A stretch of 64,000 nt of DNA from Planctomycetota bacterium. Its GTDB lineage: Bacteria; Planctomycetota; PLA2; JAEUHO01. The translations under genes and the position numbers were made by a program. How positions within the stretch are numbered: the stretch's first letter is position 1; every line of letters begins with the position of its first letter. The DNA lies in assembly GCA_965223505.1 (NCBI GenBank), contig CBDCWP010000026.1:64001-128000 (forward strand), in the 5' to 3' direction. Positions 32,339-61,694 of this stretch are shown piece after piece. The notes below the pieces were generated by a model. It saw only the letters and a program-made list of their open reading frames with translations, made no database searches and was not told the DNA's origin.

Positions 32339-32417
32339 GGGGGTGTAGCTCAGTTCGGTTTAGAGCGCCGGCCTGTCAAGCCGGAGGTCGCGGGTTCGAG
32401 TCCCGTCACTCCCGCCA
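32339..32417 (+). tRNA. tRNA-Asp(GTC), integration site
   Basis: GGGGGTG/CACTCCC acceptor, CCGGC-CTGTCAA-GCCGG anticodon arm, GGTTCGAGTCC, CCA. Confidence 0.96.
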
Positions 32418-32566
32418 TTCTCCCTGCGCGTCCCTGCCCTAACTCGCGCGACGTTGCACGCTTGGGGCCGCTCCCCTACCCGGGCGCCCGACCCCTTACA
32501 TCTCGCAGCAATGTGCGAGGACGTGCGAGGTCGTGGCAGAAGAACAGCAAAGAAGTGGTCATAGTC
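32366..32566 (+). repeat. attL-like junction: 52-bp tRNA core plus downstream arm
   Basis: Core 32366-32417 identical to 53344-53395 and 58120-58171; 40-bp arm motif at 32527-32566. Confidence 0.88.
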
Positions 32567-32652
32567 GCTTGGCGGCGCTTGCTTCGCGTGGCGCCGATGC
32601 CAGTGGCGCGAGGTTCGCGGGACTGCCCGCCTCTGTCGGTAGCGTGAATACG

Positions 32653-34050
32653 ATGCGGGGTTCCCCTGGAGCATCCGTGACACAGGCCGGACACGAAGCC
32701 GAGAGGCTGCTGAACGAGCTACTGGGCTCGTCGTTGTGCTTGGACTTCGTCCTGTGGTCGCCCCAGTTCGACGATCGCGGAACGACCAAGGAGGTGTGCG
32801 ACCACGTTCTGGAGCAGTCCGGTCAAGCGATTCCGATCCAGCTGAAGACGCAAGATCCCGCAGCAGAGCGCGACGGTGCCCGCGAACGGAAGTGGCTTCG
32901 GAAGCATGGCGGGAAGGCCGTCCGGCAGCTCTCCGGCTCGATCTCGACGCTCGCTCGCCGTGACATCGACGTTTCGCACTTGCGTCGCGGCAGCTTCACG
33001 ATCAAGGCGGCGTCACTGGAAGTGATCCACGCCGTAGCCCTCGTGGACTCCCAGCAGGTCGCGGCCCTTGGGCTTCCCACGACTACGTCGCAAGGGGTCC
33101 CCGCTCACACTCTCACCGTCGCCGACTTCGTCTGGCTCGCGAACGAGCTGATGACGGTCCCGGACATGTTCATGTACCTGGACCGCCGGAGCGAGACTCT
33201 GGGTCGCCTCGAGCTGCCCGTGGGTGCGGAGAAGGCCCTGTACGCCTGGTATATCACCCACAAGAACTCCTTCGCCGAGCTCCAGGATCTCCCGTCCGCG
33301 GAATCCGCGGCCGTGGACCTCTACGTCGGCGACAACCAAGCGTTCTACGAGATGAAGCGCCAGGACGACCGGTTGGCGAAGCACTACCAGGACCTCATTG
33401 ACGGCACGCACAACGTCAACCCGGAGCTAAATACGGAGATGCCCGCGGAACTGGCAGCGGGCTGGACCTGGGAGCAGGCAGAGCGCGACTACATCAGGAT
33501 CGCCTACGAGTTGAATGCCGTTCCACGTGCGTTTCGGCGCGAGACGATGCGCAAGTTCCTTCACAAGTGCGAACTGGCTGAGGGGTCGTGGCGCCCGAGG
33601 TTCTACAGCGAGTACTTCTCGCCTCGAGAGACCGTATTTGTCTTTGCATCGTTCGACGGAGAGCCACAGAAGGCTTGGACGTGGCTCAACGGTCTTGCGC
33701 GGGGCGCCTGGGCCGCGATCGCTGAAAGGGGCTACCCGGTTGCCCGCGTCGTCGTTGCGATGGTGCCGAGCCGCGCCGGCGGAGACGGTGCGTTCCGTTA
33801 CCTGCACCTGGAACCTGAAGGCGAACCGGGTCCCAGGGATCGCGAAGCAGCAGCCCACCTGTTCGGCGCGACCTTCTCGCAGGAGGTGAACGAATTTCCG
33901 CACTTGCAGGCCCGGCCGGGTGAACTCCGTACGTTCGGGCCCGTGCCCGGCGAAGAGGTGAGGGCCGCTGCCCAGCAAATGAAGATCGGACGCAACGCAC
34001 CATGTCCATGCGGAAGCGGACGGAAGTACAAGAAGTGCCACGGGGCGTAA
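32653..34050 (+). CDS. SEC-C motif protein with putative N-terminal NERD/PD-(D/E)XK-like domain
   Basis: C-terminal GRNAPCPCGSGRKYKKCH; N-terminal EVCD...IQLK. Confidence 0.7.
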   Translation: MRGSPGASVTQAGHEAERLLNELLGSSLCLDFVLWSPQFDDRGTTKEVCDHVLEQSGQAIPIQLKTQDPAAERDGARERKWLRKHGGKAVRQLSGSISTLARRDIDVSHLRRGSFTIKAASLEVIHAVALVDSQQVAALGLPTTTSQGVPAHTLTVADFVWLANELMTVPDMFMYLDRRSETLGRLELPVGAEKALYAWYITHKNSFAELQDLPSAESAAVDLYVGDNQAFYEMKRQDDRLAKHYQDLIDGTHNVNPELNTEMPAELAAGWTWEQAERDYIRIAYELNAVPRAFRRETMRKFLHKCELAEGSWRPRFYSEYFSPRETVFVFASFDGEPQKAWTWLNGLARGAWAAIAERGYPVARVVVAMVPSRAGGDGAFRYLHLEPEGEPGPRDREAAAHLFGATFSQEVNEFPHLQARPGELRTFGPVPGEEVRAAAQQMKIGRNAPCPCGSGRKYKKCHGA

Positions 34051-34155
34051 CGTACCGCCACACACACTGCCCCGCGATCGGCTCGCCGTCTCGGCGCCTC
34101 GTAGGAGGCCGCTACGGATCCGGCTGCGTCAGCTGTTTCCACTACGCTGAGTACC

Positions 34156-35004
34156 ATGTCCGACGTCACGACTGCCTGGATTCGCGCGACCGACGAAGAG
34201 CTGGCGCGTAGGGAGATCCCTGCGCGACGGCGCCCCTGGTCTGCCTGGAGCGAGTGGTCCAAGAAGAACGGACCATCCAGCCTGAGCGGCCCGGCCGCTC
34301 AGTTGATCTTCAAGTGGTACGAGGAGAACTACACGCGCGACGCATTCATCGTCGGGAGCCTGTTCACCGGCGCCCTCTACTTTGATCAGGGCATCTGGCC
34401 CGTCGAGGTCCCACTGGTTTACGGTAGGTGCCGTCTGGATGTGAACGGAATGGTTGCCAGCATGCCGTCCATCGTTTTCGAGCGCATGGCGAAAGACCAA
34501 AGCGCTTTCCGCACTTTCGCCGCCCTCGCAGCTGACTGCATCGACTATGGCCTGGGATTCGACGATCTGGCGAACATCAGTCTGGCGTCTTCGCTGGCAA
34601 CTAACATGTTGGTCAGCGCCGACAAGGAGCTTCGCTCAGCGGTTGTCTTGTTGCTGTCAAATCGTCCCAATCAGAAGGTTGCTGAGTCTGCGCGCTTGGC
34701 AACAGAGATGTTCCTGAAGGGCTTTCTCGCTCACTACACGGGGCTTGACGAGAGAGGTGCCAGGAACATCGGCCACAATCTGCACAAGGCCCTCGATGAG
34801 TCCCTTGCTCACGACCCGAGTTCGGATCTTCGAGTCCTTAGCGGTCTGCTGGGCCGGCTCCCGGCCATCGCCGAGCGGTACAGGGTGGCGAAACGCTCGA
34901 TCGGTGAGTTGTGGAGCGCCTACTCACTAGCCCAGATCGCCGGGACTGCCCTTGTCCGATCCCTCTCTGATCGAGACTGTCGGCCGAGCATGATGGTGTC
35001 CTAG
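34156..35004 (+). CDS. Hypothetical protein with C-terminal HEPN-like domain
   Basis: ATEMFLKGFL...GHNL..L...RY pattern typical of HEPN helical bundles. Confidence 0.6.
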   Translation: MSDVTTAWIRATDEELARREIPARRRPWSAWSEWSKKNGPSSLSGPAAQLIFKWYEENYTRDAFIVGSLFTGALYFDQGIWPVEVPLVYGRCRLDVNGMVASMPSIVFERMAKDQSAFRTFAALAADCIDYGLGFDDLANISLASSLATNMLVSADKELRSAVVLLLSNRPNQKVAESARLATEMFLKGFLAHYTGLDERGARNIGHNLHKALDESLAHDPSSDLRVLSGLLGRLPAIAERYRVAKRSIGELWSAYSLAQIAGTALVRSLSDRDCRPSMMVS

Positions 35005-35373
35005 CCACCGTTTTGGACTCGCCGCCCAAAGGGGTCTTCATCTTCAGCGTGGGTTGCTCTAGGTAGTTGCACGTCAGCGCCGTCTCTTATCGTCACTTCA
35101 AGCTCGCTGGCGCCTGAGCCGGCCGAGAATGGGATCGGGCCGCATCCACGACCGTGCGCCCGACGCTATTCCCGCATGTCATCTACTGCGATGAGCCCTC
35201 CGGCACCTGAATGCGCATTGTCTTCTCAACTGTCACTCGCGCGCAGTCAAGTTCCACGTGGCTAGTGGGGGCACGGAACGATCGGCAGAGCGGGGAATGG
35301 TCTGCAAGCGGTATTCCCTTGGTCACACTGGAAGCAGCCTTGACTCTGAGTCTTGGCTGGAATCAACCCGTCG

Positions 35374-35841
35374 CTACTTCTTGCCGTTGGAGCCTTCGTC
35401 GGTGTCCGCCTTCTCGGCTTGGGCGTCGGTGAGCACGACTTCGGCCTTCCTCAGATTCATGATGGGCAAGAGTAGCGGCGGCTGACCAGCACGGACGGTG
35501 AGGCTCCAGACAATTTCCCTCAGGTAAGGCCAGAGAAACGCAGGTGCGTTGGTGCGTGCGAACTCCTCGGGGGGCATTGAAGGCTCGCCGGACCAGTTGA
35601 ACAGCGCCCTCATCACAATGGTAGCGTCGATCGCTGCCGTTTCTCCGTCCGCAGACTCAGACCGCAGCCCCGCAGTCACGACAATACTGCGGGCCTCTTT
35701 GTCGACGACGCTCCTGATGGCGTAGTCCCACTCGGGAGCACTGAGCTCGCTCTCGGCGCTCTCTTCGACACGGAAAGATGCAGACCGGAGCTTGATCTCC
35801 TTGGCTCGATAGCCCGACGGAGAACTCTTCGTGCGCGTCAT
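35374..35841 (-). CDS. SecB-like chaperone
   Basis: NAPAFLWPYLREIVWSLTVRAGQPPLLLPIMNL SecB signature. Confidence 0.88.
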   Translation of the reverse strand: MTRTKSSPSGYRAKEIKLRSASFRVEESAESELSAPEWDYAIRSVVDKEARSIVVTAGLRSESADGETAAIDATIVMRALFNWSGEPSMPPEEFARTNAPAFLWPYLREIVWSLTVRAGQPPLLLPIMNLRKAEVVLTDAQAEKADTDEGSNGKK

Positions 35842-36272
35842 CAGGCGGCCAAACTGAAGCCCTGCATATCTTCGTCACTCAAATCGTCGTCAGTGGATCG
35901 GGGGCTCCACGCATTGCAGGACCAGAACCACTCGGTGTCGTGGACCACGATCGGATCACCGTGCGCATGATCGAGAAAGAACTCTCGAATTAGGACTTGC
36001 TCATGTTGGTCGGGATAGTGACGCTTCGTCGCCGAACGGTAGTGCGGAATGACGGACACGTCACAAAGCCTAGACGACTCGACGTCGGCGTAAACCTCAA
36101 GCATGAAGCGAACGAACTCCTCGCCGACGCCATCAGGCAGGCCGAACACGTCGAGCACTGGTCCTCCCTCATCGACAGGGAGGCTGTGGTCGAGTTGCGT
36201 GACCACTTGGGGCCACCGACTTCGCAGCACCCGCGTGTAGTGGTTCAGGATTTCGTCGTCGCTGTTCGCCAA
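35841..36272 (-). CDS. Putative antitoxin (degenerate MNT-like fold) with aromatic/acidic tail ending in LAA
   Basis: Between HEPN and SecB genes with tight coupling; ends DEDMQGFSLAA. Confidence 0.55.
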   Translation of the reverse strand: MANSDDEILNHYTRVLRSRWPQVVTQLDHSLPVDEGGPVLDVFGLPDGVGEEFVRFMLEVYADVESSRLCDVSVIPHYRSATKRHYPDQHEQVLIREFFLDHAHGDPIVVHDTEWFWSCNAWSPRSTDDDLSDEDMQGFSLAA

Positions 36273-36274
36273 GG

Positions 36275-36703
36275 CTATGTACTCACGTTCATGCTACCGA
36301 GATACTCGGGGATTCGCTCCCAAAGGGGAGCCAATTCGCCGGCTTCCACATCGTCCGGCTTGTAGTCCGACTTGATCCTCAAATCCCTGAGGCTCCTCGC
36401 GAAGGGCCCAGGCGGAGTGCCACCGAGGAGCGACCCGGCGAGTGGTGCGCAACCGCAGACAACGTCATGCGGCCATTGGCCACTTGCGTCCCCAGCACCC
36501 TGTTTGAAATCGCCAGGGACGCTTCCTCTGCTGGTCATGGCACCGACTATCGCCTGGTAGATGGCGTAGTAGGCTCGGCTGGCAGCACCGTTCATTTGAC
36601 GCGCCCTGTGTAGGGCCCTAGCTTCGCGCCATGTTGCCGCAGCCTTGCGCTTCACCGGTCCACCATCTCCCCACACGGTCGGCCCCCCGCGGGACCGATC
36701 CAC
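36275..36703 (-). CDS. HEPN domain protein (UPF0332-like), putative toxin; start uncertain
   Basis: AASRAYYAIYQA...H..V...LRDLRIKSDY. Confidence 0.8.
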   Translation of the reverse strand: MDRSRGGPTVWGDGGPVKRKAAATWREARALHRARQMNGAASRAYYAIYQAIVGAMTSRGSVPGDFKQGAGDASGQWPHDVVCGCAPLAGSLLGGTPPGPFARSLRDLRIKSDYKPDDVEAGELAPLWERIPEYLGSMNVST

Positions 36704-36860
36704 AATGCTACACGGCCGTCAGGTCTTGAGACAAGCGGTTGACACCGAGCGCTCTCGCCCACGCTCCGTGGGCCCGTGAGGGCGATCTTCATCTCGGTGC
36801 GGCTCGCGAGGCGACGAAACCTGAGCAGGCAGCGTCCCGTTCCAGGACACCTAGCCTGAA

Positions 36861-37027
36861 CTCCGCCTCGGCCGTACGCAGGTCCAACAGCGCTACGTCT
36901 GTGTACGTCTTCATCGTCAATCCGCGAGTGCCACGCCAGCGCGTGTGCGGTTCGCGGATGCTCGCCGGGGGAGGACAGCCGCGTGATGTACGTCACACGG
37001 AAGGAAGTCCAGCACGCAACCGTCATC
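36861..37027 (-). pseudogene. Frameshifted relic of a tyrosine integrase C-terminus
   Basis: DDGCVLDF/SFRVTYITRLSSPGEHPRTAHALAWHSR/LTMKTYTDVALLDL matches the C-terminus of the 38220-39452 integrase. Confidence 0.8.
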
Positions 37028-37051
37028 GGCTTACTCGCGCCTAGAACGTCA

Positions 37052-37447
37052 TCACTTGGCCTTGCTGATACTCCCGTCACGTATGCGCATGCACCATCGA
37101 CCCTCTCCGTCCGACACGGATCTCGACCACTTTCGGATCTTGTCCCAGTACCGCAGCAAGGTGAGAGCCTGCTGGCGAGCACGGAAGTTGGCGAACCCCT
37201 TCCCCAAGAAGAGAATTGGGCGAGAGCAGTCCGCCCATGCTCTCCTCTCGCGCTTCCCACGATCAAGTGTGACCACTACCCAGCCCGTTCTCGAATTGAG
37301 CTTGAGGATCCACTCAGCGTCAGGCGTCGGGGGATCAAAACTCTCCGTAAGGTGCTCGTACTCTTCTAACTCACCCTCAAGTTGGGCCAGCCTCGCGAGG
37401 AACTCGACAATGGGTCGCGGGACGCAGTTGTCGAAGAAGAACTTCAC
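37052..37447 (-). CDS. PIN-like domain toxin (VapC45/DUF5615-like)
   Basis: KFFFDNC, D.EWI, WVVVTLD; GTG start overlapping upstream stop. Confidence 0.8.
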   Translation of the reverse strand: MKFFFDNCVPRPIVEFLARLAQLEGELEEYEHLTESFDPPTPDAEWILKLNSRTGWVVVTLDRGKRERRAWADCSRPILFLGKGFANFRARQQALTLLRYWDKIRKWSRSVSDGEGRWCMRIRDGSISKAK

Positions 37448-38130
37448 GCAGCCGATCGATCGTCCAGGAACTGCTCGAATCGAACAGCGGCGCGGACCTC
37501 CGCGCCGGATGCACCGTACCAAGATGCCGTCGCCTCCACACCAGCCCCAGAGAGTGCGTGTGCCGCAAGAACCTGAGTTTCGACTCCCGCGATCGAAGTA
37601 ACGGGACGTCCAAACCGGTACTCAGGAGAGACCATCACAAGATCACGGACGTCGTGTAGCCCCCTACCGGGGTTCCACTTCGCCACCAGCCCGTCATCGC
37701 CAAACGTCACATCTTGAAGGTAGGGGTCCAGAATCGCGTGCCAGGCTTGCTGATTCTTGAGTAGCTCAACGAGGAGCGGCTCCTCCTCTTCCTGCGTGAT
37801 CTCGAGGAAGATGGTCCGGCCGAGTGTCCGAATGCGTTGACTCGCAAACGGATAGTCCAACGCCCAGGTCGTCCGGGCGCGATGAAGTGCCCGCCGAATG
37901 GCCTGAAGACTGACGCCCCGACTCCGAAGAATGTGAACCAATCTAAGTTGCTGAAGATCCAGAAACCCGAGAACAAGATCATCGTCGTAGCGGGGGCGCC
38001 ACAGGGGGCCGTAGCAGCGTCCCTTGGTCTGGTATCCATGCGTCCAATCGCGGACTCGGCGACGCGGAACACCGGTTAAGCGGCTCGCCGCCGGGACGTC
38101 GTACAGGCCATGACCGAGGACGGCGCTCAT
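37444..38130 (-). CDS. DUF433-containing HTH antitoxin (VapB45-like)
   Basis: GLY.VPAASRL HTH, FLDL, P..RFGRPV...GV.T, EVRAAVRFE. Confidence 0.82.
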   Translation of the reverse strand: MSAVLGHGLYDVPAASRLTGVPRRRVRDWTHGYQTKGRCYGPLWRPRYDDDLVLGFLDLQQLRLVHILRSRGVSLQAIRRALHRARTTWALDYPFASQRIRTLGRTIFLEITQEEEEPLLVELLKNQQAWHAILDPYLQDVTFGDDGLVAKWNPGRGLHDVRDLVMVSPEYRFGRPVTSIAGVETQVLAAHALSGAGVEATASWYGASGAEVRAAVRFEQFLDDRSAA

Positions 38131-38219: not shown

Positions 38220-39452
38220 TCAATCGACATGAGCGGAGAGGGTCGGGCCGCAAGTCAGGCGTTTCATACCCGAGGACGCCGATGCGGCGCCTGCCTCGAC
38301 GGCGGAATGGAGGTCTAGAAGCCGCACGTCGGTGTAGGTCCTCATAGTCAACTCAAGCCGCGAATGACGAGCCAGCGCCTGCGCTGTCCTGGGATGAACG
38401 CCAGCAGCCGATAGGCGGCTGATCATCGTGACACGCAGGCTGTGGAAATCGACGATGCGCCCCTGGTCGTCCTCGCCGTCGAGCCTGGCGTGCTTGAGAT
38501 CGGCGTTGACGGTGCCGTGGGTCGGGAACAGGCGGCCCGGGAACAGGGCGTCGTGCGGCGCGGTCCCGAGCCCGGCTCCATCAACGCGAGCGCGATGCTC
38601 TGCCAGCCCGTCGGCCACGTCGCTGCGAAGGGGCAGTTCCGTCTGCTTCTTGGACTTCGTGATCGAGGCCCGCACGGTCAGCGTGCGCCGCTCCTCGTCC
38701 ACGTCGGCCCAGGTCAGGCCCCGCAGCTCGCCCTTGCGAAGCCCGGTGCCAAGCGCGAATAGATACAGGTACGCCCGCGTCTCCCCCAGCCGTCGCAGCT
38801 TCGCTTCCTGCGGGGGCGTCACGCCAGTCCGTGTGCGCTTGACGCGTGCCCGTTCCAAAGGACGCCGTCGGGCGGCGTCGAGCAGCCGCTCGACCTCCTC
38901 GTCGGTCAGGGCGCGGCGCACACGACGTCGATCCGTTTCCTCGTTGCGGGGCGAGAGGCCCTCAAATGGGTTGTGCGACCAGCGGCGTGTACGAACGAGC
39001 CAGTTGCCGAACTGCCGCAAGGATGCGAGTCGCTTGTTCACGGTTCGCGCCGAGAGCCGTTCCGCGAGCTCGGCCAGCCAATGCTGCGCCTCCACCAGGT
39101 CGATCTGAGGCAGCGTGCGCGCCTTGGTCATCTCGAGGTACGTGCGGAGCGAATGAACGCGATCGCGATGGTGCTCCTTGCTCACACCGCGGCTCTTGAG
39201 GAACGCACAGAACTCGTCGATGTGCTCCTTCAGCGGTCGCTCGGCGTTTTCCTCGAACGGGTTCGCCAGCCCCACCGCCTTGCGTTCCTCGCGCTCGATC
39301 ATTTGCAACGCCCGCATTTCGGCCACACGCTTGTCGCGGGTACCGAGCGACTTGCGGATGAGCTTGCGGTTGACGTTGGCCTGGACCCAGTAGACGCGAC
39401 CGGTCTGCATCTCGCCCTGGCGGTTCTTGAACTTGGGGCGGTAGATCCTCAT
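38220..39452 (-). CDS. Tyrosine recombinase/integrase
   Basis: TGLRKGEL (R), KSKK (K), DFHSLR (HxxR), ARHS (H), YT (Y). Confidence 0.95.
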   Translation of the reverse strand: MRIYRPKFKNRQGEMQTGRVYWVQANVNRKLIRKSLGTRDKRVAEMRALQMIEREERKAVGLANPFEENAERPLKEHIDEFCAFLKSRGVSKEHHRDRVHSLRTYLEMTKARTLPQIDLVEAQHWLAELAERLSARTVNKRLASLRQFGNWLVRTRRWSHNPFEGLSPRNEETDRRRVRRALTDEEVERLLDAARRRPLERARVKRTRTGVTPPQEAKLRRLGETRAYLYLFALGTGLRKGELRGLTWADVDEERRTLTVRASITKSKKQTELPLRSDVADGLAEHRARVDGAGLGTAPHDALFPGRLFPTHGTVNADLKHARLDGEDDQGRIVDFHSLRVTMISRLSAAGVHPRTAQALARHSRLELTMRTYTDVRLLDLHSAVEAGAASASSGMKRLTCGPTLSAHVD

Positions 39453-39967
39453 TTGCCCGACTCCCGGACGGTCCCGAGGGGCCAGCCGTCGGGTCCGGGG
39501 GAACGGGACAGGCGTACGTGGCCGCACTCACACTGGAAGGGACCGAGGTCGCCCTCCGCGTCCCAGACCTCGACGTCGTTGAGCGTCGCGCGATGAAGCG
39601 CCATGCCCGAGAGGTCCTTGCCGGTGTAGAGCGCGGTGGCGCCGGCGCAGGCCCTGCACATGCGCCGCTCGTTGTCGCCGTAGTACACGGCGTGGTCGAT
39701 GAGAACGGCTCTCGGCTCGGTCACCTCGTCCGTAGCGACATCGCGCGCCGCCATCAGCAGCGCGTTGGCGGCCACACAGGCGTTGGAGAGGCCGTCGAGC
39801 TGATGCCGGTACGCCGAAGCAATGCCAAGTGCCTGCAGCGGCGCTGCGTTACTCAGAGCATCCAGAGCCTGCGCCAGTTCGTCTGCAAGCGTCTCAGCCT
39901 TGTCCCGGCCGTCGTCGAGCATCTCCGCCGCGGCGGCAAGCAGAGAGGCCCTGGGCGCGGCGCTCAC
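39449..39967 (-). CDS. Hypothetical protein with Cys pairs (CRAC, CECG), possible Zn-binding
   Basis: Overlaps neighbours by 4 bp in the same operon. Confidence 0.6.
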   Translation of the reverse strand: MSAAPRASLLAAAAEMLDDGRDKAETLADELAQALDALSNAAPLQALGIASAYRHQLDGLSNACVAANALLMAARDVATDEVTEPRAVLIDHAVYYGDNERRMCRACAGATALYTGKDLSGMALHRATLNDVEVWDAEGDLGPFQCECGHVRLSRSPGPDGWPLGTVRESGK

Positions 39968-40224
39968 TTCGCACCGCCCTTCTTGCTGGCCTCATCGATG
40001 CCGAAGAAACGAGGACCCGAGACGCTCGCGTAACCGGTAATCGCCTTCGCGACGGCGGTCAACGAGCGGTACGACGCGCCCTTGTAGGTGAAACCATCGG
40101 CCGAGACCGTCACGACGTGCTTCTTGCCCTTGTAGAGACGCTCGATCGTCTCGGCCTTCTTGCGCTTCGGTGCGCGCTTCTTCGCGGCCTTGCGCTTCGT
40201 CGCAGTCTTCTTCTTCGCGGCCAT
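39964..40224 (-). CDS. DUF2924-like small basic protein
   Basis: R.YKG..HVVTV..DGFTY.G..Y.SLTAVAKAITG...SGPRFFG. Confidence 0.8.
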   Translation of the reverse strand: MAAKKKTATKRKAAKKRAPKRKKAETIERLYKGKKHVVTVSADGFTYKGASYRSLTAVAKAITGYASVSGPRFFGIDEASKKGGAK

Positions 40225-40409
40225 CACGCACCGCCTTCCTTCTCCAGGCGGCCTTTGAGCTCGCGCAGCAGGTCTTCGGCTTCCTCGCGCGTGTCGCACG
40301 CGCACATCAGTCCCTCGCCCAGGACGTACAGCCCGTCCTTTCGGCGCTCGATGCGAAGCGGCCCCGACGTGTCGAACGTCTCGCCGTCGCTGAAGGTCAA
40401 CTTGGTCAT
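40224..40409 (-). CDS. Small hypothetical protein
   Basis: MTKLTFSDG...; GAGGAG RBS; coupled to the next gene. Confidence 0.6.
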   Translation of the reverse strand: MTKLTFSDGETFDTSGPLRIERRKDGLYVLGEGLMCACDTREEAEDLLRELKGRLEKEGGA

Positions 40410-40630
40410 CTCGGTCTCCTCGCGGCGGGCCGATTCCCGCCGTCGGGAGACACAAGGGCTCCGTATCGCGCACACATCCAGGGCTTCTCGGGGTTGAATC
40501 TGCGTCGGCCACACAGAACCAGAGATCGCCCTATCGGCGCCGCTAGGGAGATGTGAGGGGCGCGATGCGGGCGGCGCAGGAAGGGCCGGGGCGGGTCATG
40601 CGACGACCCCCGCCACGGCGGCGTGCAACG

Positions 40631-40868: not shown

Positions 40869-40881
40869 CATCGGTACAATA

Positions 40882-43178: not shown

Positions 43179-43370
43179 TTAGGCCCTACGCCGTTGTTCG
43201 ATGTACGACGCGATGTCGCCCGGGTGGAACGCGATGCGGCGGGCGGAGACTCGTACGGTGGTCAGCGCCCCTGATGCGACCAGGGATCTCAGGGTGCGCA
43301 AGCTCACTGTGAGCTGTCGCGCCGCCTCCTGCGCAGAGACGAGTTGAACGGCGGGAATCGACTGGCGCAT
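43179..43370 (-). CDS. Excisionase-like HTH protein
   Basis: EAARQL.VS.RTLR.LV.SG.L...RV..RRI. Confidence 0.85.
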   Translation of the reverse strand: MRQSIPAVQLVSAQEAARQLTVSLRTLRSLVASGALTTVRVSARRIAFHPGDIASYIEQRRRA

Positions 43371-45706: not shown

Positions 45707-45874
45707 CCGAGGACCCGGCCAGCGCCCTGGACCCCGCCGACCTCGAAGAACAGGCCAAGGCCACGATCGAGTCGTTGTCTCCCTCGACGAATAGGTGACC
45801 TGCGAAGGGCAGGAAACCGGTGTTGATAAGGCTCTCTCCTTTGGCTGGCCTATGTGCCAGGGAAAGGAAGAGAG

Positions 45875-49176: not shown

Positions 49177-49184
49177 GGGACACA

Positions 49185-50388: not shown

Positions 50389-50501
50389 CGCCCCCCCGGG
50401 GGAGCTTGGCGGCCGCCCAATCACTTGAACCTGAAGCAGCGATTCGCGGTTCCGGTACGATAGCGATGTGGTGCCGTACGCACTCTCGGAGTTTCGCCCC
50501 G

Positions 50502-52010: not shown

Positions 52011-52047
52011 GTTCACTCGCGTTCAGTCGCCAACTCGCTGAGCGATC

Positions 52048-53121
52048 CTACTTGTTGGAGAGAGCGCGCAAGATGCCGGAGTTCGAGTCGGCGACAGCGG
52101 CAATCGAGTCTCCGTCGCCCAAACCTAGCTGGCTGCGAGTCATGACTCTCACACTTCCGTTGGCGAAACCAACGATAGCCACGTCGCGAAAGTGAAGGTC
52201 GGCTACTAGCGGCTCCGAGCCGCTGCCGTCTTCGGACGCTAGCCTGTAGGCAGCTTCCGCGTTGCGCCGGCCGGCGTACGACGTCAGGTCGCTGAAGTCG
52301 TCGACGCGTGAGAACTCACCGCTCGCGATCGCGTCATAGCGACTTCGCCCCACTGACGCAAGTGAGCGGTGCCTGTCCGCCGGACTGAAGAGGATCTCTA
52401 GATGGGCCTCACCGCGAACATCCAGTCGGCCATCCGCCACGAGCGCGACAATGAACGCCTTCCCGGAATAGGGCGGATACCCTCCCGTGTTCGGCTTGTT
52501 GAGTGCAGTCAGGATCTTTCGGATGTTGTCGATAGAGCGAGCCTGGTCAGCTGCGACCCGCTGCCCCGCCAGCAAGCCCTTCATGTAGCGTCCAGGTGAC
52601 TTCGCGGACTCCGCCCACTGACGCTTCAGAAACGTAGTCATCATGCCATGAGCACCCGTACCGGTATCCACGAGCATCGGCCGCCCCGTGTTCGACGAAG
52701 TAGCCCAATCGAGATGGACGCGCCGAGAGCCAACTGTGTACGTCACCCTCCGCGACCCAGTCGAGAGTTCGCTTGAGACCAGCTCAGTTTCAGCCGGATT
52801 GTCTGGTCTGGGGGCCCTATCGATCAGACTGACCACGAGAAATCGCGCAAGATCGCGCATTAGTGAGTCGCTCTCGGCGGCCAGACTCGCGACGGCACGA
52901 ACGCCAAAGACCCGTCGCGCGATCTCAGGCACGTCAACATAGCGCGCCAGAACATCGAGGCTATCGGGCTCACCCAAATTCGCCGGAACCCGTAGGAGAT
53001 TGCGGGTTGCCGCGGTGACTGCCTCCTCGCTCGGTGCACGTACTCCGTCGTTTTCCTTCGCGGACACGTGCACTACGCCCCAGAGACCAAGAACAACAGC
53101 TATGCAAAGCGCGCGACGCAT
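52048..53121 (-). CDS. Secreted protein: possible MlaC-like N-domain + C-domain paralogous to 57301-57873
   Basis: GGAGG RBS; signal peptide; HLEILFSP.D, LTSYAG, GFANGSVR. Confidence 0.7.
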   Translation of the reverse strand: MRRALCIAVVLGLWGVVHVSAKENDGVRAPSEEAVTAATRNLLRVPANLGEPDSLDVLARYVDVPEIARRVFGVRAVASLAAESDSLMRDLARFLVVSLIDRAPRPDNPAETELVSSELSTGSRRVTYTVGSRRVHLDWATSSNTGRPMLVDTGTGAHGMMTTFLKRQWAESAKSPGRYMKGLLAGQRVAADQARSIDNIRKILTALNKPNTGGYPPYSGKAFIVALVADGRLDVRGEAHLEILFSPADRHRSLASVGRSRYDAIASGEFSRVDDFSDLTSYAGRRNAEAAYRLASEDGSGSEPLVADLHFRDVAIVGFANGSVRVMTRSQLGLGDGDSIAAVADSNSGILRALSNK

Positions 53122-53260
53122 GTGAATCCTCCGTGCCACTTCCGCCAGAACACGGCGAAGGGCAGCCGCGCTCATCCCCGGTCTCGACGGCCCGCCACAG
53201 GATACCGTAGGTTGTCGCTCCCACGCCGACGGCGATCGTGCAGAGTCGTGCACGGACGTG

Positions 53261-53543
53261 CGCACAGTCATGCCGATTTGTGGCAAAGACACCCGAGGCT
53301 GAATCTGCAACTTACGCCGTTGCAAACAGTTACGACTTGGGCTCGCCGGCCTGTCAAGCCGGAGGTCGCGGGTTCGAGTCCCGTCACTCCCGCCATTCTT
53401 GTTGCGCCCAGTTGCACTATCTCGCGCCCCGGTGCGCACTTCGGGCGATCTCGCGCCACGGCCGCCGATTCCTTACATCTCGCAACGATGTGCGAGGAAG
53501 TGCGAGGTCGTGGCAGAAGAACAGCAAAGAAGTGGTCATAGTC
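53261..53543 (+). repeat. attP-like junction: upstream arm + 52-bp tRNA-Asp core + downstream arm
   Basis: Core 53344-53395; arms 53261-53290 and 53504-53543 shared with the 58037-58320 junction. Confidence 0.88.
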
Positions 53544-53574
53544 ACTTTGCGGCGCGGGTTCTTCGTGGACCCAC

Positions 53575-54509
53575 TCACACCTTCCAGAGGAGCTGACTTC
53601 CCTCTCGGCGCACGCGGCCTCGCTGTACCAGCACATCCAGCCCCAGGCTCATGCGGGCCTTCAGTTGCTTGCCCATTCGGTTGAACCCTAGGACACGGCC
53701 GGCCTCGCGAGACAAGTCGTCCGCGTCCATGCTGACTTGGTCGCGCAGCACCGCTGCAGCGGCGTTGGCAACCTCTTCGGGGGGGATTTCGTTCGCGTTG
53801 CGGCGGTCCCGATCTTCACGGCCCTGGACTCTCACGACGTCGTACGTGCGGGGGTCCTGGTGCGAGGCCCATAGGAACGTCGACGGTCCGGCCTTCGTCT
53901 CGATCAATGCGAGAGGTCGCAGTGCCTGCGCCATGCGACCAAGGACACGGTCTGTTGCTTTCTGGAGCCCGAATGCCTCCACAACCCGGCGGCAGAGCAA
54001 GCGGTACTCGATCGGTGCCTCTTGGTCGAGCACGCGCTGGGCGAGTTCCTGTATTGCTGCGGTTCGGGAGCTTGAATAGAAGGCATCCGGTCCGCCACGG
54101 GCCTTGAGCACCGGGGTTGCTCGGTACGTCCGGCCCGCCGGCGCGAACACCTGTTTCGCTGGCGCGGGTGAAGGTGAAGCTACGGCCGCCATGTGTGCAC
54201 TGGACGCGAAGAGGCCGGAGCTAGTCGCCATGACGTCATCAGCTCCGCCGCCTTCGGCATTGGTTGAGGTGGGACGTCCGAGTTCCTCAAAACGTTGAAC
54301 GACACGCTCAATCTCGCGATCCGGATCCAGCCACCAGTCCGTCGACCAGATGCGGTGCAATGACCAACCGAGACTTTCCAACACGGCTTGTCGTAGGCGG
54401 TCTCGGTCACGAGCCGTCTTGCCGCTGTGGTACATGGCTCCGTCGCACTCAATCCCCAATCGGAACCGGCCCGGCACGTCGGGGTCCTTGATGCCAAGAT
54501 CGACACGGT
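53575..54509 (-). pseudogene. 3' fragment of a large helicase/Vsr-like nuclease/DUF3320-type protein
   Basis: VDLGI.DP..PGRF.LGIECDGAMYHS..TARDRDRLRQAVLE.LGW..HRIWSTDW; 5' part replaced by transposon DNA. Confidence 0.82.
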
Positions 54510-55298
54510 GAGGCGCCTGCTACGGGTGGCGCTGCGTCGATGGCGCTGGTATCGGAGGCGGCTAAAGTGGGTTCGTGCCGGGGCGGTGTGGGCGGCGGAC
54601 TTCACCAGGCCCAAGGCTGGCCTGTGGCAGGGCAAGGATCGACTGTTCCTGGTTCGCGATCTCGGAAGCGGAGCGCAGCTGGCGGCCGTAGCCTGCCGGG
54701 GCGAGAAGACGAAGACTGTGTGCTCGGTGCTGCTCGCTTTGATCACGCTGTTCGGAGCGCCGCTCGTTCTGAAGAAGGACAACGCCGGCGCGTTTCGCTC
54801 GGAGCAAACGAAGGCGTTGCTCGAGGAGCACGGCATCACGCCACTCACGTCGCCGCCGTACACGCCCGCCTACAACGGCGCGTGCGAACGAAGCGGCGGC
54901 AACTTCAAGCGACGTGTGGAGCACATCGCGCAGATGGAAGAACATCCCCGCATCTGGCTCCCTCAAAACCTCGACGACGCCTTGCTCGTTGCGAATACGA
55001 CGGCGAGGCCATGGGGTGCGACCGGGCCCACGCCGGCGGAGGCCCTCGAAGACCGCCGGCCCATCACGAGGCAAGAGAGAACAGCATTCGAGCACGATCT
55101 GAAGTTCGAGACCGATGCCGCGCTCAAGACATTCAAGGAAAGAAACGCTAGAATGCCGATGTGCATCGAGCGCGCGTCAATCGACCGCAGCGCGACGCAG
55201 AGAACGCTCTGCAAGCACGGCTATCTACAGTTCCGGAGAGGGCGCTTATCAACACTAGTTTCCGCTTGGCGGACGCGGCCTAACGCGTAGGGGACACA
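54510..55298 (+). mobile_element. Truncated copy of the dual-DDE element (3' part of ORF4 + right end)
   Basis: Near-identical to about 48396-49184; ends GGGACACA. Confidence 0.92.
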
Positions 55299-55299
55299 G

Positions 55300-55801
55300 A
55301 AGCACCATGCCGAGAAAGAATGGACCTGGACTATGGTCTGTGATCCACAGGACAGCCTTTACTACGTGACGTCGCACTACACAACGTCAGCGCAAAGCTA
55401 CATGTTCACAGAGGTTGACGATATCCTGGACTGTGATTACGCCAACGCGATTAACTACATTCGGATCAAGAACAGAGGTTGACGATATCCTGGACTGTGA
55501 TTACGCCAACGCGATTAACTACATTCGGATCAAGAACGACAATCTGGGCGAAGCATACCGCACCTACAAGGACGAGATTGAATCTGAGAACACCAATTCC
55601 AGTTCAGAAAATGTCAGAAGCAAGCAAAGCGGCACCGGAACAACGGCCGCAGTCGGGGATGGGTCGTTGTTCAGCGCGAGCACGAAGATAGAGTGTCACA
55701 CGTACGCAAAGAGCGAAGCACACGCACACGGCAACTTGGTCGAGTACACCTGTGGCCCGAATTTCCTTCCGATTCCAGCACCTCCGGATGACGACGACTA
55801 G
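55300..55801 (+). pseudogene. 5'-truncated ORF frameshifted by a 64-bp tandem duplication
   Basis: Removing one repeat unit gives a single open frame from the element end to the stop at 55801. Confidence 0.65.
55408..55535 (+). repeat. Perfect 64-bp tandem duplication
   Basis: ACAGAGGTTGACGATATCC...CGGATCAAGA at 55408-55471 and 55472-55535. Confidence 0.95.
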
Positions 55802-55807
55802 GCTCCT

Positions 55808-57295
55808 TTGCGATTCCGTACCGTCGTTTTCCTTCTGGTCTTGGCAGTGGCGGGCGCCTTCTCATGGGTCGCGATACGAGACCGGCCGCACGCCAACAGT
55901 ACTCAGCAGACTGGCGCATGGCCCATTCCCGCTACTGAATCACCATCGCTTTCGGGCGCGGCAGCTCAGACGCGGCCAGACGATGAGGCCCCATCGCGTC
56001 ATGATCCGCTATCGCGGCGCATGCGAGCGCTAAGTGATGCGATCTTGAACGCGGGTCCGATGGAAGTCAGGGCGACCCTGATGTCTCTCGCAGAGCTTGT
56101 ATGCCGTGACCCGAGACTTGCAGGTCGGCTTGCGTCCGAGGCCCTGAGTGCTAGCGAGCGCGGGAACCAACGCCTCGCGGCCGACATTCTCTATGCGATG
56201 GGGCGATGCAAGAACAGCGAGGTCTTGGAACACTTGATCCGAGTGCTCCGGGACGAAGACGCGCCCGCGCCGCTACGCGGAGCCGCAGCGATCGGCCTGG
56301 CGCAGCGTCGAGTTATCGACCTGCGCTACAGGGCCGGGCGAGTGGGAATTGCATTCGGCGATACGCATCTTGACGGGCCAATCGAAGAGGCGTTTGTACG
56401 AGAGGCCATACTCGAAACACTTGTCACCATGTTTCGTGATCGGAACATCTCCAAGGAACACAGCGGCCATACCCTTTACCAGTTAATTCATGCGCTTGGA
56501 GGCAGCGCCACAGTGGACCATGGCGTGTTTTCGACACTGGAAGAGATCGGAGATGCGGCTCCTAGCTACACACCCTGGGTTCTGTCTGCGTTCCAACTCT
56601 CCCTTGGCAGCAGCCAGGCGGCGTATGCCAGGGCGATATTGTTTCGCCCCGATGCAGACGACGCCACCCTTCAAGCTGCGATGTCGCTATTGATCCGTTC
56701 GGACCTAAAGGGGGCGGCTGCTATCGCGGCGTCTCTCCTCGCCGCACGTTCCGGCTCCGATGCCGTCGCGCTCCTAACCGCAATGGGCACCATAGGCGTT
56801 GTCGAGGAGGGCGAAATGCATGCAGTTGAAGCGCTGTGTCAAGCGGCGGTTGAGTGGGCGCGGCAGCATCCGACAGTTCGGCTAGAGGACCAAACCGAGG
56901 TGAGTACTGGAAGCGCATTGCAAGGGGTGCTCAGCGTGGCTCTCGCTCGAGGCGCATCCGAGTCGAGAGTCATAGTAGGGTACTGCGCGAACGCCTTACT
57001 CGAACGCCTCGAGTCAGACAATTTGTCATCCGATCGGGAGCTGGCAATCGCTGTCCAAACATGCGTGTCGCTCGGTCGGTCACAGTTCATTGACGAGTTC
57101 GTCTCGCGGCTAAGGGGAAGCACCCTGAACTCTGAACGTTTGGCGCATACGATACTCTCCATTCGCCAAGGGACATCGCGCAAGAGATGGGAGAAGTTTG
57201 AGGCGAGAATACTCAGCCTCCTGGACCGTCTTCCACCAGAACTGATGAAGCGCACCGAGAAGGCCCTAGGAGAGTTCCCAGACCCACGGAAGTAG
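55808..57295 (+). CDS. Exported HEAT-like helical repeat protein
   Basis: N-terminal hydrophobic segment; LIRVLRDED...LRGAAAIGLA. Confidence 0.65.
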   Translation: MRFRTVVFLLVLAVAGAFSWVAIRDRPHANSTQQTGAWPIPATESPSLSGAAAQTRPDDEAPSRHDPLSRRMRALSDAILNAGPMEVRATLMSLAELVCRDPRLAGRLASEALSASERGNQRLAADILYAMGRCKNSEVLEHLIRVLRDEDAPAPLRGAAAIGLAQRRVIDLRYRAGRVGIAFGDTHLDGPIEEAFVREAILETLVTMFRDRNISKEHSGHTLYQLIHALGGSATVDHGVFSTLEEIGDAAPSYTPWVLSAFQLSLGSSQAAYARAILFRPDADDATLQAAMSLLIRSDLKGAAAIAASLLAARSGSDAVALLTAMGTIGVVEEGEMHAVEALCQAAVEWARQHPTVRLEDQTEVSTGSALQGVLSVALARGASESRVIVGYCANALLERLESDNLSSDRELAIAVQTCVSLGRSQFIDEFVSRLRGSTLNSERLAHTILSIRQGTSRKRWEKFEARILSLLDRLPPELMKRTEKALGEFPDPRK

Positions 57296-57300
57296 CGCCT

Positions 57301-57873
57301 CTACTCGGAGAGGAGTCTCAGCAATGGTGACAATGAGTCAGGCCCGGCGCGAATCGGGTCGTCCCCAGAAATTCCAAGCTCCTCGCGGCTGAGAACTCTC
57401 ACGGAGCCGTCAAAGAACGCAATGACCGCGAAGTCCTCGAAGCACAGCTCAGCGATCAGCGGGGGAGGAAGACTAGACTGCCTTGGTTCGTTTGCGCGAT
57501 CGGTGCTGCGCCCGACCGGACCTACGAAGCTCGTCAGATTCGGGAACCGCTCGCTTCTGAGCGCCTCTCCGGTGACCATCGCGTAGGCGCCTGCCGCCGG
57601 TCGCCGGCGACTGTCGTTCGGCGAGAAGAGGAGTTCAAGGTGATCCGGGTTTCTGAGCGGGTCGAGAGTGCCGTCCGCAACCAGCGAAAGGACGTAGCTC
57701 TTCCCGACTTCGATCCGGTTGGCGCTCGATCGCATCAGCAGGGCTGAAAGCGTCTTCAGCCTGTCAACGGAGACACTCAGATCGCGGTCCAAACTCGAGT
57801 GTGCAGGCGTGAGCAGCCACGCGCCGAGCGCTGCGGCGGCCACAAACAGCAGAAGAGCTACGTATCTTGACAC
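57301..57873 (-). CDS. Exported protein, paralog of the C-domain of 52048-53121 (H-X9-DG-like tail)
   Basis: GKSYVLSLVADG.LD, HLELLFSP.D, LTSFVG, AFFDGSVRV. Confidence 0.72.
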   Translation of the reverse strand: MSRYVALLLFVAAAALGAWLLTPAHSSLDRDLSVSVDRLKTLSALLMRSSANRIEVGKSYVLSLVADGTLDPLRNPDHLELLFSPNDSRRRPAAGAYAMVTGEALRSERFPNLTSFVGPVGRSTDRANEPRQSSLPPPLIAELCFEDFAVIAFFDGSVRVLSREELGISGDDPIRAGPDSLSPLLRLLSE

Positions 57874-58036
57874 ACCTCTTTCATTTTACTCCAGTGGAGC
57901 AACTTCGCCACTGTATCGAGCGTGTCGACCCCATCGCGCGCGGGCAAGGTGGCCCGGTCGGTCGAGACGGACCTCGCGCGCCAACGATCGTCGGAGCCAT
58001 CGCCGCTCGCTCAACGCGAGGTCGTGCAACGACGCG

Positions 58037-58320
58037 CGCACAGTCATGCAGATTTGTGGCAAAGACGCTCGCGGCCGGTCTTGCAACTGACGCCGTTGCA
58101 AGCAGTTACGACTTGGCCTCGCCGGCCTGTCAAGCCGGAGGTCGCGGGTTCGAGTCCCGTCACTCCCGCCAGTCTTCTTGCACGACGTCGCCCCAACTTG
58201 CGCGACGTTGCACGCTTGCGGCGATCTCCCTAGCGGAGCGCCCGATCCCTTACTTCTCGCAGCAATGTGCAAGGACGTGCGAGGTCGTGGCAGAAGAACA
58301 GCAAAGAAGTGGTCATAGTC
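58037..58320 (+). repeat. Second attP-like junction
   Basis: Core 58120-58171; arms 58037-58066 and 58281-58320. Confidence 0.88.
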
Positions 58321-58432
58321 ACTTGGCGCTTCTCAGTCAGCCGGCCGAGTGTGGCGTTCCGACCGATCGGCAGGGACGGAGTGGTGACCCGGGTCCCAAC
58401 TTCCGGTTACCGAGCGGGGTGAAGCTACTCGC

Positions 58433-59957
58433 GTGAGGCGTTGTCTTCCCCATCTGCTCTTGCTCGGCGCCATCACACTGGTAACAGCCTTCACGGCCTC
58501 GACGGTCGGAGAAACGTCTGCAGCACCTGAGGCCGACGCTGGCGGGCCGTGCGGCCTACCCGACAGCGGTGCCGTCTGCGAACGGCCGCTTCTCGGCGCG
58601 AAGCCATCAGACGGAATCGATGAAAGTCCTTGGACGCAATCGCCGCCAGTCGAGCTTCCGACGAAGGCCCGCGGGCTCGGCGCGAGACCGTTTGGCGGCA
58701 TGGATTTCGATCCTTGGACGCAATCATCGCCCACCGATCCTCGGACGCAGTTGCCACCGGCCGTTCCGCGGAAGCGATCGCCGCCCGCCGTTGTTCCGTC
58801 GCGAGCCGGACGGCGCGACAAGAGCAAAGAGAAGTGGCGAGTTCAACGCGCACTACCGGGTACGAACGGCGAACTGATCGTCGCTGAGGAGTATCTCGAA
58901 GAAGCGAGCGCGACCAAAGCGGCCCTCGTCGCCTATGACCTGTCCTCGCTTGCACCTAGTTTCCGTGGGCATAGCGCCTCCGCGCCGCTCAAAGGCCACG
59001 AGCCACTTGCTGCATGGCCCCCCCGCGACCATGACTGGTGGACCCGGCTCGCTACGGCCATCGTGGACAGGGTCGGCGAATCCGGCTGGGCGAAAGACAG
59101 TACGCTCCTCGCCTGGGACAAGGAACGGGCGCTGCTCTTCGCGGCTAGGGGACATCGACCTCGAGGTGTCGTGGTGCACGCACGCACCTCGCTTCGGGAC
59201 GTTCTCGACGAGTCTCGTTGGATCCCACGTCAACGTCACGATCGAGATCCCAGACACAGACCCGTTGAGCTGGCGAGGCCGCCTGCCCGCAGTGCCGGGC
59301 ACCAGCTCGGTGATCCCCCTGGGCGAGGGCCTCTCGTGTGAAATCGAAGTAGGCGAGCCGAAGCGCGCCGACCGACCCCTGAAGCGCACCTGGCGCCGCG
59401 CCTCACCGTCGTTAGGTCCCCCACCCCCAGCGGGCGAGGGCTCGGTACTCGTGTTCGATCTCTCAGGCTCCGAGAGCGGGAAACTCGGCGAGGGGCAAGT
59501 CACCCTGCGTGGCCCACATCAGGTCGTCCAAAGTGATGTCCGACGCTGTTCTCCTGCGTGGCTTGCGGCGGCGTACGACCGAGACCCTCTCCGACCGCCA
59601 GGAGTCGGCACCGGACCCGTTGCCTGTGGGCAGATTCGCGTGCAGGCATCGTCGTTCGACGCCACCCGCGAGCCCTCTCGTATCGATCTTGTGCTCGTGG
59701 TCAGCGAGTGGACCGGGGACACACGGCTAGTTCAACTGCGACCTGGCGGCACGCCGGAGTTTGACCGCAGCCGCTTAGTGGAACTTCCGTCGGATCATGC
59801 CGTGGTCACGAGCCGCCACGTTTTCATTTCGCCGGAAGGCGAAGGCTCCGTCTCCTTTGCCGGCGACATCGGCCGCGGTCCCGAGCTCTTCACCCTTGCC
59901 TTACAGCGACGTCAGGTGCCGCAAGATACGGATGCAGGCTCGCGTCGCGGGCAGTGA
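58433..59957 (+). pseudogene. Secreted hypothetical protein, probably frameshifted near 59150
   Basis: Signal peptide in 58433 frame; protein-like sequence continues in the 58935 frame after about 59150. Confidence 0.5.
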
Positions 59958-59972
59958 CCAGTCAGGAAGCAC

Positions 59973-60012
59973 GAGGTCGTGGCAGAAGAACAGCAAAGAA
60001 GTGGTCATAGTC
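59973..60012 (+). repeat. Orphan copy of the 40-bp downstream arm motif (no tRNA core)
   Basis: GAGGTCGTGGCAGAAGAACAGCAAAGAAGTGGTCATAGTC exact match. Confidence 0.92.
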
Positions 60013-61686: not shown

Positions 61687-61694
61687 TGTGTCCC

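Follow-up and report, generated by a model that had tools for sequence, protein, structure and literature searches.

How do gene sets with unrelated cargo come to stand one behind the other downstream of a single tRNA gene, and could one integrase serve them all? The question is raised by a 64,000-nt stretch of one Planctomycetota metagenome-assembled genome (MAG) assembly, referred to here as the window. In it an intact tRNA-Asp gene is followed by a tandem array of integrative units, and this array runs on past base 64000, where the window ends. The host is an uncultured planctomycete known from this MAG, and the named relatives of the array's tyrosine integrase in a large protein collection are likewise proteins of Planctomycetota or Planctomycetes MAGs. 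We consider it probable that the array formed by accretion, with sibling elements of one tyrosine-integrase family inserted serially at the 3′ part of the tRNA-Asp gene.

tRNA-Asp cores and attP-like junctions

The integration target is an intact tRNA-Asp(GTC) gene on the plus strand (32339–32417), which is called by ARAGORN and scores 72 bits with the Rfam tRNA model. Its last 52 nt (32366–32417, plus strand), which form the first core copy and the core of attL, recur exactly and in direct orientation on the plus strand at 53344–53395 and 58120–58171, as an initial annotation of this DNA had reported. The identical stretch begins five bases upstream of the anticodon stem and extends through the CCA end. 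The last 47 nt of the gene, present without mismatch at 53349–53395 and 58125–58171, gave no matches in 100 shuffles. ARAGORN calls no tRNA at the copies beginning at 53344 and 58120, and both are therefore partial copies. Base composition also changes at this gene: G+C is 0.68–0.71 in the host flank, which carries UDP-glucose dehydrogenase and subtilase genes, and 0.59–0.66 from the tRNA onward.

Both internal cores are flanked by arms that give them the layout of an attP site. Junction 2 (53245–53568, plus strand) consists of a P (left) arm at 53245–53343, the core and a P′ (right) arm at 53396–53568; junction 3 (58021–58345, plus strand) consists of a P arm at 58021–58119, the core and a P′ arm at 58172–58345. 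At junction 1, alignments and the shared repeat family place the P′ arm at 32418–32591, also on the plus strand. The 99-nt P arms ahead of cores 2 and 3 are 86% identical and contain a second motif, which sits 83 nt ahead of each core (53261–53290 in junction 2 and from 58037 in junction 3), where the initial annotation had placed it.

Conservation in the P′ arms is concentrated in a single block of 41 nt. It begins 108–109 nt past each of the three cores (32526–32566, 53503–53543 and 58280–58320) and occurs a fourth time, starting at 59972, within a core-less partial P′ arm (59971–60027, plus strand). The four copies are 100% identical in all six pairwise comparisons, and the 32 nt at the centre of the block have four exact occurrences (32533, 53510, 58287 and 59979) with no mismatches and none expected by chance. 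The spacer between core and block is 72–82% identical from pair to pair, and the 60 nt beyond the block just 51–63%. That an invariant motif follows each core, with a lone fourth copy, had been noticed before; both points are borne out, and the shared block measures 41 nt. The fourth copy has 49–57 nt in common with the junctions. Neither a core nor a left arm lies within ~700 nt of it, and the candidates for a degenerate core or P arm in its vicinity were only chance matches of 8–13 nt. A small minus-strand peptide starting from an ATG within the block was also considered and dropped, the sequence directly past the block being unrelated among the copies.

Several features of the locus are those of an accretion array: (i) the target repeats all have the same orientation, (ii) the target is intact at one end, (iii) the junctions are homologous hybrids and (iv) at least one unit carries a cognate recombinase, represented by an intact integrase whose relatives lie at tRNA 3′ ends. 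The view of the initial annotation, a head-to-tail stack of related units at tRNA-Asp with attP-like junctions made of left arm, 52-nt core and right arm, is upheld in this respect. At each insertion, the attP of the incoming element (P arm, 52-nt core and P′ arm) would recombine with the chromosomal core. Because attP recombines with the resident core, the tRNA would stay intact and the unit boundaries would become P–core–P′ junctions. New units would enter at the tRNA-proximal site, and decay rises with distance from the tRNA. Strand exchange probably occurs in or near the anticodon loop, since one internal tRNA-Gly junction in a related array is identical only from the loop onward; presumably this position ties in with the known sublocation classes. 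Once in place, unit 1 (20,978 bp), unit 2 (4,776 bp) or both together (25,754 bp) could be excised by the resident integrase and a small HTH_17 protein, and we infer that the integrase may act on units in trans. Unit 2, which to judge by its sequence has both att sites and no recombinase, fits the definition of a cis-mobilizable element (CIME). Unit 3 and the core-less arm at 59972 would be more decayed remains, the lone block copy being a scar left when a junction lost its core and left part to deletion.

The resident integrase, its relatives and their arm-type sites

The sole intact tyrosine integrase of the window (P0001, 410 aa, 38223–39452, minus strand; Pfam PF00589 and PF02899) reads toward tRNA-Asp, from which it is 5.8 kb away, behind a cargo slot. 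The initial annotation had likewise proposed one integrase for the differently loaded units. Its closest proteins in the large collection are P0002 (89% identity) and P0003 (74%), and residues R239, K266, H337, R340, H363 and Y373 are the same in all 25 aligned relatives. The predicted structure has a mean predicted local distance difference test score (pLDDT) of 85.4; its N-terminus forms strands at residues 2–35 and a helix at residues 41–59 (pLDDT ~90), followed by the core-binding and catalytic domains. In fold comparison, the top matches are the phage Brujita integrase, the full-length lambda integrase and the Tn1549 integrase. Lambda integrase is aligned over 388–399 columns, with TM-scores of only 0.36–0.38, and identity to the solved integrases is 16–21%. 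For the N-terminal part Pfam offers DUF6538 alone, under its cut-off. All matches of the integrase among phages are below 32% identity, and a distant search of plasmids with P′ arm 2 gave no match.

An integrase-alignment scan of 185,579 species genomes yielded 79 loci, mostly in Planctomycetota MAGs, 46 of which were scanned for tRNAs. At least one tRNA gene is present in 34 of these 46 loci. In the layouts inspected, the integrase is convergent on the tRNA 3′ end, usually at a distance of 150–400 nt, and the targets include Val, Gly, Met, Asp, Lys, Arg, Ser, Cys, Tyr and Gln tRNAs. The same tRNA-Asp end is used by the closest loci, L005 (73% identity), L022 (66%) and L018 (55%), and a homologous P′ arm lies at the same distance from the core in L005, L022 and L079.

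The relatives also indicate what the conserved block may be. In 31 P′ regions, self-matches of 4-mers peak at lags of 10, 11 and 12 nt (0.026, 0.019 and 0.044), compared with 0.009, 0.007 and 0.012 in host-side controls. By eye, these repeats are two to three tandem copies of an element-specific 10–12-nt word, with TGC-type repeats before them. In all three single elements with both ends visible (L015, L026 and L029), the P arm contains a tandem pair of the word found in P′; the fetched 10-kb flanks of L005, L022 and L018 stop short of the far ends of their elements. In the window itself, repeated 9-mers are in excess in the arms, with 17 against 6.3 (a count reached by 4 of 300 shuffles) and 31 against 8.4 (reached by none of 300), and the words GTGGCA(A/G)A and GTCAT are present in both arms. 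The 41-nt block, which had been proposed to belong to a core-plus-arm site system, is indeed located where the relatives of the integrase carry phased arm-type repeats. Given the phased P′ repeats of the relatives, the recurrence of their words in the P arm and the 9-mer excess in the window, the block is best read as the distal P′ arm cluster of phased arm-type sites, and the ligand suggested by the sequences is most likely the N-terminal domain of the integrase. Both arms thus appear to contain repeated arm-type sites that are distinct from the core. An RNA reading of the arms was dropped; the Rfam scan gives tRNA alone and no further RNA family.

A different element lies close to the core. 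A ACTTACGAC-type motif is found ~10–20 nt before the core in the window (53320–53343 and 58096–58119) and in the L006, L016, L038 and L041 junctions. It is common to the left arms of elements at different tRNAs (Asp, Gly-CCC and Gly-TCC) and may be a core-near site used family-wide.

Stacks of this kind are not confined to the window. At least three further MAGs contain internal P–core–P′ junctions with related integrases, on contigs of chromosomal size. Contig JACKGW010000005.1 carries a tRNA-Gly(CCC) gene with two more copies of its last 45–52 nt downstream; right arms are conserved at each of the three junctions and left arms at both internal ones, and the three integrase homologues of the contig share one orientation. 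At L016 and L038, which come from one MAG, and at L017 (contigs of 925, 609 and 77 kb), the integrase-adjacent core is a 49–50-nt partial tRNA, and what precedes it is left-arm-like sequence with a ACTTACGAC-type motif, not the tRNA 5′ half. L006 has a like arrangement, the partial tRNA measuring 49–51 nt across the four loci, but on a 6.7-kb contig that is possibly a free circle. Judged by these junctions, stacking is recurrent in the integrase family, and its recurrence in other genomes argues against an assembly artefact in the window.

Other loci show integrase homologues side by side. Two full-length homologues stand head to tail at one tRNA, ~280 nt apart, in L004 (296–2861) and L010 (8579–11143), and L030 (234–3808) contains two on the same strand, of which the second is partial and ~1.5 kb from the first.

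Unit contents, decay and rival explanations

Unit 1 (32418–53343, 21 kb) bears signs of a composite origin. A remnant of a second integrase gene, corresponding to residues 333–384, lies at 36870–37020 on the minus strand (tblastn, 57–76% identical); its two pieces overlap, which implies a frameshift. It is the only extra match in a tblastn search at E ≤ 10, which found no further integrase copies in units 2 and 3. Since this remnant occupies part of the slot that separates the P′ arm from the intact integrase, unit 1 is composite: the dead integrase would mark an earlier accretion, after which the inner junction was deleted and two cargo slots were fused. The arrangement suggests that slots may grow via accretion followed by inner-junction deletion. 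Neither this remnant nor the three-copy 3.4-kb transposon described below had been mentioned in the initial annotation. A like remnant lies between the integrase and tRNA-Asp in L007 (13329–13457).

The open reading frames (ORFs) of 32.5–61.7 kb were scanned with Pfam, NCBIfam and PHROGs, the last applied to 22 ORFs. The variable cargo slot of unit 1, annotated with Pfam, NCBIfam and PADLOC, occupies 5.6 kb between the P′ arm and the integrase (32533–38130) and has genes on both strands. It begins on the plus strand with a SEC-C-motif protein of 505 aa (32533–34050) and a 282-aa ORF (34156–35004). The remaining genes are on the minus strand: a SecB-like protein that matches PD-T4-9_C (35374–35841), a 143-aa ORF (35841–36272), a weakly HEPN-like ORF (36275–36703), a PIN_10 toxin-like gene (37052–37447) and, overlapping it upstream, a helix-turn-helix (HTH) antitoxin-like gene (37444–38130). 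The slot therefore holds two candidate modules of toxin–antitoxin type, the SecB-like/HEPN-like region (35374–36703) and the PIN_10/HTH pair (37052–38130).

Beyond the integrase, the minus strand encodes a small protein beside int (39449–39967) and a DUF2924 protein (39964–40512; Pfam), both assigned to the backbone by tblastn to relatives, with matches in 5 and 7 related loci, respectively. They are followed on the same strand by a 756-aa primase-helicase with Prim-Pol, PriCT_2 and AAA_25 domains (40882–43152; Pfam, and PHROGs DNA primase) and by the 63-aa HTH_17 protein (43179–43370). The latter scores 30.9 bits with Pfam (cut-off 27) and matches a PHROG annotated as excisionase and transcriptional regulator; it is a candidate excisionase or AlpA-type directionality factor. 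The third backbone gene, on the plus strand, is a fusion of ParB-N and an N6/N4 DNA methyltransferase (44372–45706; Pfam), which is 65–66% identical in L005, L022 and L018. To the right of a transposon, and directly after it, lies an RHS core tip with a variable C-terminus (49291–50388, plus strand; TIGR03696), then a transglutaminase-like protein (50406–52010, plus strand; Pfam) and the right-end gene (52048–53100, minus strand), whose true start is uncertain. In its C-terminal part this gene shows homology to the gene at the right end of unit 2 (BLASTP, 39% over 127 aa, E = 5e-23). Both end in a ...(D/N)GSVRV... stretch, for which the family libraries gave no match and which we take to resemble the C-terminal end of DUF1559-type proteins from planctomycetes.

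No relaxase, coupling protein or type IV secretion system (T4SS) gene was found by the three scans, and oriT was not searched for. With none of these genes found, the array cannot be filed as an integrative and conjugative element (ICE) or an integrative and mobilizable element (IME). PHROGs matches among the 22 ORFs are limited to the primase, the ParB/methylase, the excisionase-like protein and unknowns; no capsid, terminase, tail or packaging-hijack genes are among them, which leaves no ground for calling the array a prophage or satellite.

The slot between integrase and tRNA is equally variable in the relatives. It contains a MauJ-domain protein and SIR2_2 in L007 (11254–15224), an AAA_13/AAA_21 ATPase in L018 (11389–13977), an HATPase_c protein in L005 (8994–11000), pentapeptide repeats in L011 (5193–5846) and transposases in L020 and L079. 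Near the other end, full-length RHS frames of 1,318–2,142 aa occur, several per locus (L041, 15577–20658 and 2428–6381; L021, 299–6724). With this varied slot cargo and these RHS frames, the integrase family seems to be a vehicle for defence and toxin genes.

Unit 2 (53396–58119, 4.8 kb) has kept its P′ and P arms and both cores, and no integrase is detected in it by Pfam or by tblastn at E ≤ 10. Its first gene, on the minus strand at 53575–54477, encodes the C-terminal ~270–300 of the ~1900 aa of a ProA/Hhe-type anti-phage protein (NCBIfam NF058533, profile positions 1642–1903 of 1903; PADLOC PDC-S37/Hhe). The 5′ side is missing, the gene being cut off at the start of a transposon fragment. 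On the plus strand follow an ORF (55415–55801) and a 495-aa ORF without a family (55808–57295), and the unit closes with the homologue of the unit 1 right-end gene (57301–57873, minus strand). A perfect 64-nt tandem duplication (55408–55535) lies almost wholly within ORF 55415–55801; its length is not divisible by three, and the reading frame is shifted as a result. The ORFs of unit 3, which begins at 58172, have no family match (58433–59957), and the same is true of the plus-strand ORFs at 60107–60550 and 60824–61705. The product of ORF 58433–59341 (plus strand) has an N-terminal hydrophobic stretch. Within this ORF, 58592–58750 contains two 75-nt copies, 84 nt apart and 71% identical, likely a peptide module of a secreted protein.

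The transposon is present in three copies that are 97–99% identical, with imperfect subterminal inverted repeats, and these copies have cut and reshaped the array. Copy A (45773–49186, plus strand, ~3.4 kb, left end approximate) encodes HTH ORFs and two rve transposases, an IS481-like one at 45854–47236 and a second at 47998–49176. Copy B (61685–64000, minus strand) is inverted relative to copy A, 99% identical to it, and runs off the end of the window. Copy C (54510–55299, plus strand) is the 790-nt 3′ fragment that adjoins the truncated anti-phage gene. The inverted copies A and B bracket 49187–61684, including cores 2 and 3. Inversion between them was considered as the origin of the layout and rejected, since cores 2 and 3 would then oppose the tRNA.

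The decay of the outer units lends itself to another explanation, in which integration was serial as we propose, units 2 and 3 and the scar have since become fixed chromosomal DNA, the integrase, if active, moves its own element only, and the invariance of the block reflects a constraint that preceded integration rather than present function. The state of units 2 and 3 is in keeping with it, given the truncated ProA/Hhe gene joined to a transposon fragment and the core-less arm, and so is the dead integrase that separates the live one from the tRNA-proximal arm. The divergence of the arms (72–86% identity) can also predate integration, in which case the block could be identical without any selection in the array. 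The three cores, however, are still identical over 52 nt, the arms of unit 2 are complete, both the integrase and the HTH_17 gene are intact, and nothing in the sequence speaks against recombination; we regard this explanation as possible, though accretion with units that may still excise is preferred. A bolder view sees the stack as a large-scale platform for defence and toxin cassettes, served by one integrase, with accretion and inner-junction deletion as its regular mode of cargo capture. A cycle would add the genes of the newcomer to the slot between P′ arm and integrase, with the ends of dead integrases as scars, and integrase-less units would keep perfect arm sites since they are still moved in trans. 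We think this unlikely. In an integron-like stack, as the initial annotation had it, the integrase-less units would be cassettes; with one truncated defence gene, pieces of a transposon and an arm that lacks its core, they look instead like decayed remains.

Two further alternatives concern the block and the assembly. If the 41-nt block were a promoter or operator, or a small RNA, of the first cargo gene, the junctions could have been spread by segmental duplication. A plus-strand ORF does lie within ~150 nt in three of the four copies (32533–34050, 58433–59341 and 60107–60550), and the lone copy has no core. Copy 2, by contrast, is followed by a convergent gene, and in the compact relatives the repeats lie in the 150–400 nt between the tRNA and the stop of a convergent integrase, a stretch with no gene for them to control. 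The presence of P′ words in the P arm as well, at the opposite end of the element, and the lack of any Rfam family besides tRNA also tell against a regulatory role, which we consider very improbable. Less credible still is the concatenation, at the 52-nt core and its arms, of strain variants of one island, even though repeats of 52 nt to 2.3 kb in a metagenomic contig are error-prone for assemblers. The units share only their arms, one right-end gene (39%) and the transposon, which sets them apart from variants of one island; their junction arms diverge by 14–28%; and like architecture is found in other MAGs on long contigs (229, 925 and 609 kb).

Several observations weigh against the accretion model as a whole or against parts of it. 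The contig, 172,781 nt in length, is metagenome-derived and represents a single assembly of a single strain, and the right end of the array, with any further integrase, falls past base 64000. The inverted transposon pair around 49187–61684 could have rearranged the array, and the tRNA-side P′ arm may belong to the element of the dead integrase rather than that of the live one. The exact 24-nt centre of the block has no match in the 185,579 species genomes, among which the window's own genome is not included, so that the motif in its literal form is confined to that genome and conservation of the block elsewhere is architectural. Neither the primase-helicase nor any of the left-slot cargo genes has a homologue in the fetched relatives, and the backbone is thus only partly common. 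The match of the N-terminal domain to the lambda fold depends on the low TM-scores given above. Finally, the 10-mer GTGGCAAAGA (≤1 mismatch) has 4 matches compared with 2.6 expected, and such short words are not significant alone; they gain weight because of the 9-mer excess in the arms and the comparison with relatives. The earlier claim that the arms share short repeats stands in this collective form, and not for the individual 10-mers.

Relation to known systems

The mobile elements of Planctomycetota are little described, and among the titles and abstract openings covered by a literature search none concerns tRNA-targeting integrative elements or arrays in this phylum. Together with its relatives, the window defines a family whose attP is modular, joining conserved arms to cores that match many different tRNAs. 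Further features of the family are recognizable arm-site repeats, a variable slot that is often defence-like or of toxin–antitoxin type, and RHS toxins at the other end. These features provide rules by which islands can be delimited in planctomycete MAGs, and candidate integrase/att pairs may serve as genetic tools in a phylum that is hard to manipulate.

At the level of the attachment site, a close parallel is phage lambda, whose arm-site layout is the reference for this comparison. Like the lambda-type attP, the sites described here appear from their sequences to have a core between P and P′ arms and short direct repeats spaced about one helical turn apart. The integrase shares with that of lambda the catalytic R-K-H-R-H/W-Y set, and a small N-terminal strand–helix domain is predicted for it. 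It differs in the low identity to solved integrases noted above, in its arm words and in a core that is a 52-nt tRNA segment, and its binding to the arms is predicted.

The initial annotation had called the stack integron-like. There is a likeness in the use of a tyrosine recombinase and in the one-directional stack of units with unrelated cargo, but the comparison does not extend further. The integrase is inside unit 1, 5.8 kb from the primary site, and there is no integrase-adjacent attI or cassette promoter and no attC-type site. The units, at 4.8–21 kb, are multi-gene, with genes on both strands, full arms of 100–170 nt and partial tRNAs. Composite staphylococcal cassette chromosome (SCC) islands at orfX in staphylococci are a second kind of stack, with direct repeats and some units without recombinase genes, and their elements are excisable singly or together by the recombinases of one of them. 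SCC elements differ from the array in their serine recombinases, their protein-gene target and their short repeats without long arms.

Reports of tandem islands at tRNA genes are common in the literature, and three systems come closer to the array. In the accretion of ICEs, IMEs and CIMEs, as outlined in PMC5704250, an element enters a resident att site and forms a tandem, tandems excise in several patterns, and decayed units that keep attL and attR (CIMEs) are cis-mobilizable. The streptococcal arrays of ICESt1/ICESt3 type, in the same account, resemble the window in using the 3′ end of a target gene, in CIME decay and in further integration (PMC5704250); the window differs in the absence of conjugation genes among its scanned ORFs, in its Planctomycetota host and in the integrase remnants in its cargo slot.

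In Dehalococcoides, tandem islands at ssrA include, by the description in PMC3146451, units without an integration module that are proposed to be cis-mobilizable. That description also gives as common ground the tandems past a small RNA gene, the direct repeats of its 3′ end with conserved repeat-flanking sequence, and an integration module beside attL on the reverse strand (PMC3146451). The Dehalococcoides islands have a CcrB-like serine recombinase, a 20-bp repeat and a transfer-messenger RNA target, whereas the window has a tyrosine integrase, a 52-nt core with long arms and a tRNA target.

The tycheposons of Prochlorococcus, as presented in 10.1101/2020.12.28.424599, are also tyrosine-recombinase elements at tRNAs with partial-tRNA flanks, many of them with a primase or helicase and cargo, and neighbouring elements can be separated by a partial tRNA alone. 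In that account, newcomers are proposed to displace older elements from the tRNA, with broken integrases and partial tRNAs left behind (10.1101/2020.12.28.424599), a picture close to the one drawn here for unit 1 and the units beyond it. Phylum and base composition differ, no capsid-related genes of the kind carried by phage-inducible chromosomal islands were found among the scanned ORFs of the array, and the two are compared by architecture alone. Seen beside these systems, the planctomycete array is a clear further example of the accretion and decay known from other bacteria rather than a new principle.

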